Assembly (NCBI GenBank): GCA_964016885.1
Contig: OZ024740.1
Location: 409,820,001 to 409,884,000 of the forward strand
Direction: 5' to 3'
Source of the DNA: Eledone cirrhosa
Taxonomy: Eukaryota
DNA: 64,000 bases
The position numbers and the translations under genes were made by a program. The notes below the pieces were generated by a model that worked only from the letters and a program-made list of their open reading frames with translations, had not been told where the DNA came from and did not search any database. How positions within the stretch are numbered: the stretch's first letter is position 1; each line of letters opens with the position of its first letter. Positions 4,525-22,768 of this stretch are shown here, one piece after another.

Positions 4525-4605
4525 TGCTTTTACCGACGGTTTCGCCTCACAAAAGATTGGAAATCCGAGGGACTACCAATGGGAAGTTCGGCTCTTCAGA
4601 AAGCA
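4525..4605 (-). ncRNA. Type I hammerhead ribozyme motif
   Basis: Minus strand reads UGCUUU-CUGAAGA-GCC[43 nt]GGC-GAAA-CCGUCGG-UA-AAAGCA. The core is complete, with a 6-bp stem I, a G-C closed stem II, stem III ACC/GGU and a GUA cleavage triplet. Confidence 0.85.
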
Positions 4606-4950
4606 TTTTCCCCTGCATAGGACATAAAGTCGGTAAATATATTGCCTTCAGCCAGCTAGTGCAGGATCGAATGAGGCCGTAAACGTGACCTATACGTGAA
4701 CTGGTCGTTAATAGAAACGGGAGTAGCATAGACGTGTTGTCTGCCACACCACTAAAAATAGCAGCTAGGTAAACAACGGATTTTTTCTCTACACTTGGGA
4801 GAATTTACATAAAATGAGATCAATATCCCCTCAGCTACTAAGTACCCTCGGTAATATATAGGGTGTCTATGATACAGTTGTTGTGAAACTCATTTTTGCA
4901 TCTAGAAGATCCCGTTAAGGGTGAAAGCCTTTGCTTAAACTTTAATCTGT

Positions 4951-5036
4951 TATATATATATATATATATATATATATATATATATATATATATATATATA
5001 TATATATATATATATATATATATATATATATATATA
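4951..5036. repeat. (TA)n microsatellite
   Basis: Pure TA run, one of many in the window. Confidence 0.98.
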
Positions 5037-5244
5037 AGGAAAAAAGATGAAATCGAGAATGCGACCGGAGTCTTTTTTCAAAAAATATATTTATTTGGTT
5101 CCTTTACCGGTTTCGCAGTTCTTGTGCTTTTCAAAAGTAGAATTGAGATGTAGGGTTTGTGGTTTTTCTCACATCTGGTTGGTCTTAGAATGTTACTTCT
5201 GTTTTATATGGAAAAAAGTGGCTCTAAATGCTAGGTTTTTAGAG

Positions 5245-5812
5245 AAGTAATTTGGTTGGTTGATGACTGTGAATAAGTATAATAAATTTCGCGCCAGTTC
5301 GCGTTACAAAGTTCTTATATTTGCCTTAAAAAAAGAGGGGCTCAGATTGTTTTTCATATATGAGTGAAGTCTGGTTGGTTGATGCAGTCACGTGAATAAG
5401 CACATCAGCTTTCGTGCCAGTTTGTGTTTGAATTTCTTTCTACTTAAAAAAAAAGGTGGGTCACGAAGGCTTTTTTTATAAATGTAATTTGATTGGTTAT
5501 AAATGAAATTATGACAGTCACGTGAACAAGTACATTAAATTTCGCGCCCGTATTTTGGAATTTTTTTTGTAGCGATTTAGAGAATTTTGTGCCAAACAAA
5601 AGATAATGGTCAAGAAAAGAGGATGGAGAGAGTTGTTCTGGTTCAGTGCTGAAATGTAATTTGGTTGGTTATAAATGAAATTATGACTGTCACGTGAACA
5701 AGTACATTAAATTTCGCGCCCGTATTTGGGAATTTCTTTTGTAGCAATTTAGAGAATTTTGTGCCAAACAAAAGAAAAACAGGATGGGGAGAATTGTTCT
5801 GGTTCAGTGAAT
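5245..5812. repeat. Diverged tandem repeats (120-170 bp units)
   Basis: Four occurrences of TGGTTGGTT...GTGAA.AAG.A.A..A.ATTTCG.GCC. Segments 5480-5648 and 5652-5809 are a close direct duplication. Confidence 0.75.
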
Positions 5813-6262
5813 ATGGTTGGTTCACTGGGGTGTCAAAATTCAGACTTTCTATTGAAATAAAGAAAGTAGAGATATGTATGTTTATGTGGGGGGGGGGTAT
5901 GGTTAGCATGTTAAGATGAAGAGAATATATATATATTGTGCGCGTGTGTTGGAAAATGATTCCGTTAGTAGAAATGGGGGAAGGAGTTATGTATATGTGG
6001 GGGGGGGGGTTTAGCATGTTCAGGTGTTAGAGTATTAACGTATGTTAAGGTTTATTTAGCTCTGGTTTTATTTTCGAAAATAGAAGGTGTTATGTGTGTA
6101 TGTATGTGTCTGTTAGCATGTTATGGTGTTCACATAATGTATATTAAACTATATTTAATGCTGGTCAATATTTTTGAATAAACATATTTTCCTTATTTAT
6201 TCGTATTTGTTCTGTTGTATTGTCAGCGCAAAGATAACATGGGAAGACTATATATATATATA

Positions 6263-7548
6263 TAGGGCGGGTAAAATTCCCGAGATCCATGGACGAGTTC
6301 TCTCCAGTGGTTTCTGTCCTTCATAATCGCCACCATTTCCTGCGTCTTCAAGAGACCAGTGTCTGTCCTTAGGGCATCAATATATGTCAACCTCAGCCTC
6401 CCTCTTCTAGTCTGTCTGTGTAGGGGCTCCCACAGGAGCACTGAGTGCAATGTCAACTTTGGCTGTCGGTGAGCATGTCCAGCTAACCTCAGTCTCCTCT
6501 GTGTTACTTTCGATCTGACTTTTGGGAGACTCCTGTACAGTTCTGAGTTCTTCATTCCTCAGTGTATACTGATTAATGTTCAGAGCCATCCTCAGCATTC
6601 TCGTGTAGCACCCATCCACAATCTGAGTGAGTTTCTTGATCAGTGTCCATGTTTCAGACCCGTACAGGAGCACAGATTTCACTGTAGCAACGAAGAGACG
6701 GATCTTCGGGTCTTTACGAAGGCCCGACTTCCAAGCTGATCTCAAACTGTGGCACGCTGCCCAGGCTTTGCTCTTCCTCTCAACCACATCATCCTCTGTG
6801 TTCCCAATTTTTGCTCTCAGACACAGGAAGTCATCAACCAACTCTAGCGGCTTCCCGCTTACATCCATAATCTTCTCTGGCTTCTTAATGTTCTCTACCA
6901 GATACTTCGTCTTAATCTCATTCATTGTCAGCTCCTCACTCATCGACACTGTCTCCACCTCCTGCATCAACCCCTCTGCCTCCTTCACTGTATTTGTCAC
7001 CAGAACTATGTCGTCAGCAAATTCAGCATCTGATACCTTTTTAGCCTTAACTCTTCTGCTCTGAGCCAGTGCTACAGTAAAGCCAGAGTCCTGGTGTTTC
7101 TCCAGTGCAAGGCGCATACAATAGTCCACTGCGATGATAAAAGGGTAGGGAGCCAATGTATCTCCCTGGAGCACTCCAGCCAGTATCTCAAAGAACTCCG
7201 TCGTCCCGTCAGGTGTAATGACTTGGGCTCTGGTGTTGGTGTAGAGCAGTGATATCAGGACCACTATCTTCTTGGGGGTTCCATAAGCCTGTAAATCTTC
7301 ATTAGGCAGTGACGCTCCACAGAATCAAAGGCCTTCCTAAAGTCAATGAAAACCATGACAACAGGAAGGCTCTTTGCCCTAGCTCCCTCTAATAACCCCT
7401 CAGCATCAGGATGTGACTGGTGGTTGATCTTCCCTCTCTGAAGCCGTTCTGGTTGTCCCTGAGCTTCTTCTACATCTCGAGCTGGGTGCTGTTAAGAATC
7501 ATCCTGTTGAGGGTCTTTGCTACAAGTGACGTCAGTGAGATCCCCCTG
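6263..7548 (-). mobile_element. 5'-truncated RTE-clade LINE (RT and C-terminus), frameshifted
   Basis: GVLQGDTLAPY.FII, FADD, SVLLYGSETW and RRLRLAGH motifs in ORFs 6407-7264 and 6223-6555. Both ends abut (TA)n. Confidence 0.92.
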
Positions 7549-7868
7549 TATATATATAATTCAAATTTTAAAATATAATATATGCATATATAGTCATATA
7601 TTTTTAGGGAAACTTATTGTATTCTGTACATATATTTTATCGTATGTATATATTTATATATTTATATATTTATATATATATATAAATATAGTTGTTATAT
7701 AGTAAGGTGCATTATTGGTTGTGTAAAATGGTCCAATAACTTTATGTTAGCAATATTAAGTTCTCCACACTTTTGTATATCTCCAATTCCATTCGAGGGA
7801 ACAGCTAGATGATGTAAAACGGAGTATAAGTATCAAAGGGAAAATCCGAAGGCAAGGTAAAATTCCAG

Positions 7869-21105: not shown

Positions 21106-21324
21106 CCCTGTAGCATTTAAACCTGCTGTATCCGGCCAGAATTCTCTCACCTTGTTCTGTTCAAACCAACTGTAATTGGCCACTCATGCCAATGTTGGTA
21201 TTGTTCTCAAAATAAATAACATCAAAATCTCGTAGATTCCATAATATGTGAGATAATTATGTAAGATAAAGCTTTTACCACAAAAATACAATAGTATATA
21301 TAGAGTAATGCAAATGCTAAAGGG
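21106..21324. mobile_element. piggyBac-type MITE (CCCT.TAGCATT TIR)
   Basis: CCCTGTAGCATT...AATGCTAAAGGG-TTAA. Same family as 48330-48549 and the partial copy at ~50815-50980. Confidence 0.75.
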
Positions 21325-21654
21325 TTAAACCACTAACCCTTAAACTTCTGTTTATATTGCTTTTGTTTTGGCATTGTTAAAGGATGAAATTAGTAATATA
21401 CAAAAATGATTTACTATACTCAAATATGCACAGATGCAGTTTGATATGGACCCTCGAAAACAGAAATGGACAAAAATTCCATCAGACAAAATTCCCTGGA
21501 GAAATATCCCCACTCTTGTACAAAACTCCAACATAATAAAAAAAATCTGTATATAGTTTTTAATAGCTAAAAGAAAACATTATGCAATGTAATTTATTTT
21601 ATTAAAAAATAAAGTAAAATTATATATGTATACTCCTCCCTTTTATATATATAT

Positions 21655-21834
21655 ATAATTATTTCTACTTTTGGCACAAGGCCAGCAATTACCCAGTGCA
21701 TTACTGGTACTTTATTTTATCGACCACATAAGGATGAAAGGCAAAGTTAACCTCGACGGGATTTGAACTCAAACTGTAAAGGGACGTAACTATGCTGGAA
21801 AGCATGGCGTCCGACCCTCTCCCGATAATGCCAA
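21655..21834 (-). mobile_element. Dominant octopod-type SINE copy
   Basis: Reverse complement of the 60747-60930 copy. Confidence 0.9.
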
Positions 21835-21986
21835 TATATATATATAATAAGGAGTTGACGGACCCAGCATATTTATCAATGCCAGTATCTCAGCGTACTC
21901 TATGGGCAATGTAAGAGACATTCCCAGAGTATACACATAGTTATTTGCTTCAACACAAGACACGTAAAACGGGTGCCTATAATGGT

Positions 21987-22097
21987 TCCCGGACTCGAGT
22001 TTCTTCCGCACTAATGCATCAGTAAGGTGCACTGCACCATCCGTCTGCATATATTATGCAACAATGCATAATCGGCTTATGCGGCTTCATCAGGGAG
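21987..22097 (-). ncRNA. Hammerhead-like motif with branched 83-nt stem II
   Basis: CUGAUGA...GAAA-CUCGAG-UC, with palindromic stem III ACUCGAGU and a GUC triplet. Stem II CCGCA/UGCGG has a mismatched base and stem I is weak. Confidence 0.5.
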
Positions 22098-22701
22098 TAT
22101 TGCCTAATCAATAACCAATCGATCGACAGAATTTGAACACCAGTCCAAGCCAGTCATGACTGTTTGTGACGACTGACACAGTAAAGCGATTAGCAACTGG
22201 CACCCGATAAGAGTCTATCTCTCAACTAGCCACCGATTTACAAATTTTACGTGGTGGCGGGAAGCTAAAGAATCAATCTTTTCGTTCCCATCAAAAGCTT
22301 TCAGCCAACGTGTCTCATACACAAAAATTAAGAGGTGAAAAGATGGCTATTAGAAATAGCAGTTCACATTGATGTATAATAGAATAGTAGCATTTGGCTC
22401 ATGTCTCCAAGCTCCATGGCTAGAGGAAAGCGATGGTAACAATGGTAGTGCCAAGAACCTTTAATGGACTTTAAATGCGATTATCCATTATAGAGCAATA
22501 TAGTAGTGAGCTGAAACGTGTGTAGAGAACCAATCTATTTCACAACTTAAAAGAGTGAGACAAAAATATAACCCATGCTAGCATGGAAGATAGATGTTAA
22601 ACGATGATGATGATGATATATATAAAAATATATATATATATATATATATATATATATTAATTCAAAATATTAACAAAAATAGACATTCGTGTGATCAAGT
22701 A

Positions 22702-22768
22702 TATTTTATTATACATATTTCAGAGGTACTGAGCTATCTTCAACAGTACGTCCTCATCAGATAAAATA
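22702..22768 (-). ncRNA. Type I hammerhead ribozyme motif
   Basis: UAUUUUAU-CUGAUGA-GGACGUACUG[12 nt]CAGUACCUCU-GAAA-UAUGUA-UA-AUAAAAUA. It has an 8-bp stem I, a 9/10-paired stem II and an AUA triplet. Confidence 0.78.

Follow-up and report, generated by a model that had tools for sequence, protein, structure and literature searches.

Type I hammerhead motifs with family-specific stem II arms in a Penelope-like setting of the Eledone cirrhosa genome

A 64,000-nucleotide stretch of the genome of Eledone cirrhosa (assembly GCA_964016885.1, contig OZ024740.1, positions 409,820,001 to 409,884,000 of the forward strand; hereafter the window, counted from its first letter) is AT-rich, dense in short and long interspersed elements (SINEs and LINEs) and microsatellites, and contains hammerhead ribozyme motifs whose stem II is in most cases much longer than in the animal hammerheads described so far. 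As the initial annotation had proposed, the analysis supports a reading of the motifs as type I hammerheads that belong to several repeat families without mutual relationship and lie in a setting of Penelope-like elements (PLEs). The motifs are probably the 3'-terminal remnants of pseudo-long terminal repeats (pseudo-LTRs) of several independent Penelope-like families, each of which has its own stem II length. The association of hammerheads with PLEs is already known, and their role is still open. The family-specific long arms are real, and the single added structural module suggested earlier is unsupported, the window holding four unrelated inserts.

All five proposed cores, CUGANGA...GAAA...UH in type I order, are present where they had been placed. 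The motifs are named by core start: H1 4599(-), H2 7946(-), H3 8593(+), H4 22093(-) and H5 22760(-).

4525..4605, minus strand: H1, type I hammerhead; core 4599-4593, stem II region of 49 nt at 4592-4544, GAAA at 4543-4540, predicted cleavage after 4531.
7869..7956, minus strand: H2, type I hammerhead; core from 7946, stem II region of 47 nt, predicted cleavage after 7881.
8583..8670, plus strand: H3, type I hammerhead; core 8593-8599, stem II region 8600-8646, GAAA at 8647-8650, predicted cleavage after 8658, stem I interrupted (4+6 bp).
21987..22098, minus strand: H4, decayed type I hammerhead; core 22093-22087, stem II region of 83 nt at 22086-22004, GAAA at 22003-22000, predicted cleavage after 21992.
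22702..22768, minus strand: H5, type I hammerhead; core 22760-22754, stem II region of 32 nt at 22753-22722, GAAA at 22721-22718, stem I of 8 bp, predicted cleavage after 22710.

A strict descriptor (stem I of at least 4 bp, stem II of at least 3 bp, and stem III, with a stem II region of up to 150 nt) matched H1, H2, H3 and H5 and nothing further in the window, and gave a single match in total in 300 dinucleotide shuffles of the window in 500-nt blocks. A looser descriptor, whose class yielded two matches in 300 shuffles, added H6 at 28011(-), which has the same core order; its stem II region spans 12 nt and opens with a U.U pair, and its stem I has 6 bp. The H4 copy is rejected by both descriptors because the pairs that flank its core are broken, the base of stem I being a C.C mismatch and that of stem II having A.A and G.A. 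All three stems are thus paired beside the core in four of the five genomic copies, and in H4 at the family level only. H2 and H3 are identical over the length of the motif, being the outward-facing arms of one inverted repeat, and are counted once. The earlier description of four unrelated contexts with mostly conserved pairing is confirmed, with the H4 copy of the window as a qualification. Together with H6, the window holds at least five hammerhead families, with arms of 12, 32, 47, 49 and 83 nt. Judged by core and stems, H1, H2, H3, H5 and H4 as a family are real type I hammerhead motifs with predicted self-cleavage.

Chance matches, or ribozymes exapted by the host for a function, are barely credible as a source of these motifs. 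An Rfam scan at E<=1 returned 43 matches, none of them a hammerhead, even for the short-armed H6, and the folding scores of whole motifs are weak. Against this, the shuffle controls largely refute chance, the families are present in high copy number, and the H4 copy is worse than its family.

The proposal that stem III is short and often palindromic proved correct: stem III with its loop is self-complementary in all four distinct sequences, perfectly so in H4. Stem III alone forms no hairpin, and its predicted self-pairing as a duplex amounts to -11.3 (H1), -6.0 (H3), -10.7 (H4) and -2.2 (H5) kcal/mol. A palindromic stem III is reported to let two hammerheads cut as a dimer (PMC6765202).

The repeat families of H4 and H5 were followed in public data by comparing 21850-23095, at 80% likeness, with contigs (set X1) and restriction site-associated DNA (RAD) reads (set X7) of organism A, which come from separate studies, and with contigs of organisms B (X5) and C (X6). 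The X1 set contains 0.44 of sampled words and may differ from the individual or species of the window. A total of 4805 of its contigs aligned. Their summed depth, which is not a copy number, is 22,000-64,000 over H4 and its 3' flank and 1,400-11,000 upstream of it, and 550,000-700,000 over H5, falling to 11,000 within 250 nt upstream; single contigs among those listed have a depth of 6-19. The data point to dispersed and abundant families with thousands of copies or more, and both families are also present in the two other organisms. In both families, depth declines towards the 5' side. Since other H4-family copies in organisms A and C continue beyond 22560 with shared sequence, the H4 copy of the window is 5'-truncated.

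Among the difference rows listed, seven fall in H4, and five of these are the X1 majority, at 83-99.5% of depth. All five improve a pair when scored on the insert fold as it stood before the reads and on canonical stem registers: 22094 and 22096 lie in stem I, 22005 lies where stem II begins at its base, and 22019 and 22042 belong to the insert's second hairpin. Of the 336 possible single changes, 32 would improve a pair, which gives p ~8e-6, or 2e-6 with transition weighting. The other two rows listed amount to ~1% of X1 depth. The first stem II pair of H4 remains A.A among these rows, and other PLE hammerheads are listed with extra unpaired bases at this place (PMC8557442, PMC4209133). A contig of organism C spans 21993-22132 with eight differences and no gap, and the joints that skip the insert, among those listed, are single contigs each, with no common short form. 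In its family form, H4 is thus a hammerhead that pairs well and whose stem II contains a three-way junction; the window holds a decayed copy of it.

Inside the H5 motif, no substitution row was found among those listed, and its loop carries a 1-nt deletion in 270 of 1159 X7 reads. In many reads the alignment breaks off at the two ends of stem I, 22700 and 22768, beyond which, by eye, diverged forms of these flanks follow; the ribozyme is hence conserved better than the sequence around it. Organism B has 22703-22797 with two differences; in a contig of organism C (depth 3), G-C replaces the G.U first pair of stem II and the loop is diverged. H5, whose arm is a 10-position stem with a 12-nt loop, closely resembles a usual PLE hammerhead in which the hairpin is somewhat extended. 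In H4 and H5 alike, the long stem II characterises the family and is not the accident of one copy.

How far these arms exceed known forms can be gauged from File S2 of PMC8557442, in which all 26 animal rows have a stem II region of 12-26 nt (hand count). The arms of H1, H2/H3 and H4 (49, 47 and 83 nt) are well outside this range, two to three times longer, while H5 is only marginally above it. The earlier claim that the whole set of 32-83 nt surpasses the usual form thus holds fully for these three, slightly for H5, and had overlooked the ordinary 12-nt arm of H6. The four inserts are unrelated in sequence and shape, with one simple hairpin, two interrupted hairpins and one three-way junction; the H1 region consists of a 3-bp base, an internal loop and an interrupted hairpin, and that of H4 of a basal stem and two hairpins. 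A lineage-specific variant, also suggested at first, is unsupported in view of the 12-nt form in the same window, of the PLE-X1 hammerheads of spike mosses, whose stem II regions reach 54 and 48 nt (hand count; marked as deviating in File S2 of PMC8557442), and of the published search itself, which is blind to long forms. The spike-moss elements differ from the window in belonging to a plant, lacking an endonuclease and targeting ribosomal DNA, and no branched arm is listed for them. The 2014 descriptor has no helix III and permits a stem II of 3-7 bp with a loop of 3-10 nt, at most 25 nt in total (PMC4209133); because it stops near 25 nt, published arm lengths may be cut by the search. It fits none of the five motifs, which have a helix III and are therefore not 'minimal' in the published sense; they come nearer to the 2014 variants whose helix III is small and palindromic. 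Full-text literature searches found no report of long-armed PLE hammerheads in animals, for which a precedent may exist, and no branched stem II was seen in PLE hammerheads in the literature examined.

The long arm is most likely a peripheral extension that would have been gained separately in each family and kept folded to hold the core in register. Neutral growth at a tolerant site, by small duplications or captured hairpins, is a serious contender as an account of the arms, if somewhat short of an even chance, and would be a variant of the PLE origin favoured here. The lack of a common sequence or shape among the four inserts fits it, as do the 9-nt near-duplication with which the H4 insert opens (direct reading), the variable loop of H5 and the short arm of H6. 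The H4 majority, however, outpairs the window copy in the distal hairpin too, the H4 insert is free of gaps in a second organism, and the inserts fold better than mononucleotide shuffles, with z of -2.3 (H1), -2.3 (H3) and -3.7 (H4).

In addition, two of the arms may reach the 5' flank of stem I and form candidate pseudoknots there. Five unpaired nucleotides of the H1 insert (4585-4581) complement a segment just 5' of stem I, and in H3 the apical-loop positions 8622-8626 complement 8573-8577, beyond the long interrupted stem I (direct reading); both are sequence matches without a null.

4608..4612, minus strand: candidate pseudoknot partner of H1, 5 nt, just 5' of stem I.

Pseudoknots are common among natural hammerheads (Perreault et al., 2011, PMC3088659), and as in the pseudoknot-stabilised forms, the extension of stem II could match the stem I flank over 5 bp in H1 and H3, as a match of letters alone. 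A 9-nt segment upstream of H1, 4629-4637, is the exact complement of 4529-4537, the strand across the cleavage site, which it could block. The flanks of H1 are also able to lengthen stem I.

The surroundings of the motifs fit pseudo-LTR remnants of PLEs, with downstream (TA)n tracts, 5' truncation, head-to-head inverted copies and a palindromic stem III. The nearest downstream (TA)>=4 in the RNA sense lies 88, 185, 36, 142 and 46 nt from H1 to H5, respectively, which places four of the five motifs within 150 nt of such a tract, as had been noticed at the outset, against 10% of window positions on a given side. The copies around the motifs are short, and at least that of H4 is truncated.

4438..4950, minus strand: H1-bearing stretch of 513 nt, between (TA)20 at 4398-4437 and (TA)43 at 4951-5036; its part 4893-4950 is shared with 74-166, possibly as the end of a different, plus-strand repeat.
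7825..8713, both strands: head-to-head inverted repeat that holds H2 and H3; arms 7825-8047 and 8423-8713, 96% alike, the right arm ~70 nt longer (8450-8520) and ending at (TA)n, the left arm extending ~140 nt more, to (TA)n at 7684.
21847..22563, minus strand: 5'-truncated copy of the H4 family, ending at (TA)6 at 21835-21846.
22657..23099, minus strand: H5-bearing stretch of 443 nt, between two (TA)n tracts, with family depth maximal over the ribozyme.
27954..28021, minus strand: H6 insert of 68 nt, nearly ribozyme-only, between (TA)n tracts; motif 27968-28017, core 28011-28005.
15036..15124, plus strand: decayed relative of H6; core at 15072 with one change, (TA)n after it, and an inverted copy of its own 3' part on the upstream side.

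PLE insertions are 5'-truncated and often have an inverted truncated copy on the 5' side (Craig et al., 2021, PMC8557442), and inverted truncated copies are seen in the window at 7825-8713 and 15036-15124; two strand-switch joints in H5 are single-contig each. The extra 8450-8520 was considered as an intron and rejected, as it has no GT-AG ends on either strand (direct reading). PLEs of the Hydra clade have (TA)n targets and a type I hammerhead near the 3' end, often with a mismatched first pair of stem II (PMC8557442); a preference for insertion at (TA)n also marks the Neptune and Naiad clades. Their hammerheads share with the window the type I order, the short palindromic stem III, (TA)n and the inverted 5'-truncated copies. 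From ribozyme to 3' end there are ~30-120 nt in five Hydra-clade rows, compared with 36-185 nt to (TA)n in the window, and the mismatched first pair is U.U in Hydra-clade rows and in H6, and A.A in H4. They differ in the stem II region (12-26 nt in the animal rows versus 32, 47, 49 and 83 nt), in the branched arm of H4, none being listed for the clade, and in having an open reading frame (ORF), which was not detected at the window motifs. Metazoan PLE hammerheads are reported as dispersed single motifs with many families per genome (Cervera and de la Pena, 2014, PMC4209133), including opposite-strand pairs 100-700 bp apart with a probable dimer function (PMC4209133), and the window resembles them in its dispersed single motifs, unrelated families and opposite-strand pair.

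Short non-autonomous hammerhead elements, retrozyme-like or SINE-like, that use PLE proteins without being truncated coding PLEs are an unlikely source. They would account for the H6 insert, which at 68 nt is almost the ribozyme alone, for the sharp depth peak of H5 over its ribozyme and for the want of a PLE ORF in the 18 translations; animal retrozymes, moreover, descend from PLE pseudo-LTRs (10.64898/2026.07.22.740005). Non-LTR retrozymes likewise contain type I hammerheads in non-coding animal repeats but are defined by ~300-bp tandem monomers and circular RNAs (PMC7229834, 10.64898/2026.07.22.740005). No head-to-tail array of hammerhead monomers was found in 4000-23500, around any motif, nor a dominant tandem joint in the reads, so the retrozyme-like families proposed earlier fall outside the retrozyme definition. 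The one back-jump joint of H5, 22785 -> 22707, corresponds to a tandem unit of ~80 nt and has a depth of 138, which is less than 0.1% of local depth; it is the one sign of the partial tandems that make up pseudo-LTRs, none of which was found in the window. At the loose ends of H5, the flanks go on in diverged form, and the H4 family is longer than 700 nt. Non-autonomous families are nonetheless not separable here from truncated copies of coding elements.

An origin as 3' ends of Naiad-clade PLEs is very improbable. Naiads also have (TA)n targets, and eight families have widely spaced half cores, reported 35-50 nt apart (PMC8557442). Naiads are stated to lack canonical hammerheads (PMC8557442), however, and the window motifs are in canonical type I order; the 3' ends in the supplement put the cleavage strand, by eye, inside loop II or upstream. 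Since the window motifs are not of the permuted CSG kind, Naiads are unlikely parents. Four 12-nt motif probes had no match in the Naiad supplement, a weak test given line breaks and divergence.

Among the nematode entries of that supplement, five Naiad consensus 3' ends look by eye like complete, non-circularly permuted hammerheads of the CSG type: loop II holds the cleavage strand, stems I-III are fully paired in differing sequences and, by eye, an extra helix links the flank of stem I with stem II. Type CSG is reported from two metagenomic sequences only (PMC10085705), and a literature search found no paper that ties Naiad ends to it. In the two octopus Naiad 3' ends and some others, by eye, the cleavage strand comes first, followed by GAAA and then CUGAUGA; stems I and III are good, and the stem II partner apparently lies upstream and not after the core. 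A scan of the window for permuted hammerheads gave one candidate in SCG order, spread over ~250 nt near 45560-45816, for which no null was computed.

Several results weigh against the origin from PLE pseudo-LTRs and against the family form of H4 that accompanies it. Penelope reverse transcriptase or GIY-YIG domains were matched in none of 18 stop-masked sense-frame translations near the motifs, where the copies are short (Pfam, E<=1), so the link to coding Penelope-like elements is indirect. The comparison with public data covers H4 and H5. Listed were 40 of 154 difference rows, on which the H4 result rests, and this result describes a well-paired family master and not covariation between families. 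X7 concurs at four of the five H4 positions and is split at 22019, where 139 of 310 reads have the repairing letter; a minor row at 22006, which all 85 reads of one X7 locus carry, would disrupt a pair if no second change compensates for it. Whole-motif folding z is weak (-1.8 to +0.4), and for H1, H2, H3 and H5 the active fold is not the predicted lowest-energy fold and has a low predicted probability.

If the motifs are such PLE remnants, their history can be sketched as follows. The endonuclease of the parent element would nick (TA)n, and its reverse transcriptase would copy uncleaved RNA from the 3' end, usually halting early and often near the ribozyme. Such copying would leave short pieces, each with a whole ribozyme. 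Uncleaved RNA is the in vitro template of a lizard PLE, the ribozyme of which needs protein (PMC11167929). In tandem transcripts of active elements, two motifs may join by their palindromic stem III and so cleave the transcript into unit lengths, probably slowly or with the help of a protein. The single copies of the window are probably inert, because no same-strand partner motif lies near any of them and the active fold is poorly favoured.

Two ORFs with RVT_1 matches, 6407-7324(-) (E 3e-9) and 13016-13528(+) (E 0.07), look like unrelated LINE pieces. A translation upstream of H1 faintly resembles, by eye, the C-terminus of the Hydra endonuclease and is doubtful, part of the DNA looking like the 3' end of a plus-strand repeat. 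The H5 pattern gave one match in metagenome contigs (L001), which has no similarity to the window and was judged chance, and none in viral contigs. A relic at 84(+) departs from the core at two positions and is no more than chance would give, with 0.35 such matches per shuffled window. It lies in one of two short repeat ends, 74-166 and 4893-4978 (+), which are 81% alike, precede TA-rich tracts and have a small hairpin followed by GAAA; they are possibly a decayed hammerhead family, at chance level in the scan.

Other repeats surround the motifs. An inverted duplicate of 1.5 kb (46736-48209 and 55885-57353, 98% identical) contains an ORF with an acidic N-terminus, which we take to resemble piggyBac-type transposases. 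Near-perfect inverted repeats or hairpins like those of miniature inverted-repeat transposable elements are found at 10311-10859, 23405-23934, 45223-45963, 11413-11530 and 49209-49331, and none of these five contains a hammerhead core. A tandem array of 20-21-nt units occupies 41998-42297. Adjoining the (TA)n tract that holds H6 is a decayed ORF, 28262-28600(-), which by its motifs presumably resembles a mariner transposase.

Beyond a probable origin as PLE remnants, the long arms allow a broader and more doubtful proposal. Type I hammerheads whose stem II is long or branched (47-83 nt) would form a large class in animal PLEs, with thousands of copies in each genome, that searches with a length cap have overlooked; the arm would be a structural domain under selection, docking on stem I or binding the protein of the element, and would so time RNA cutting. 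A natural three-way junction throughout a family, in stem II, and arms of 47-49 nt with possible pseudoknots would broaden the range of natural hammerheads, indicate that censuses with a length cap undercount those of animals, and provide constructs for asking whether peripheral structure or the protein of the element controls cleavage.

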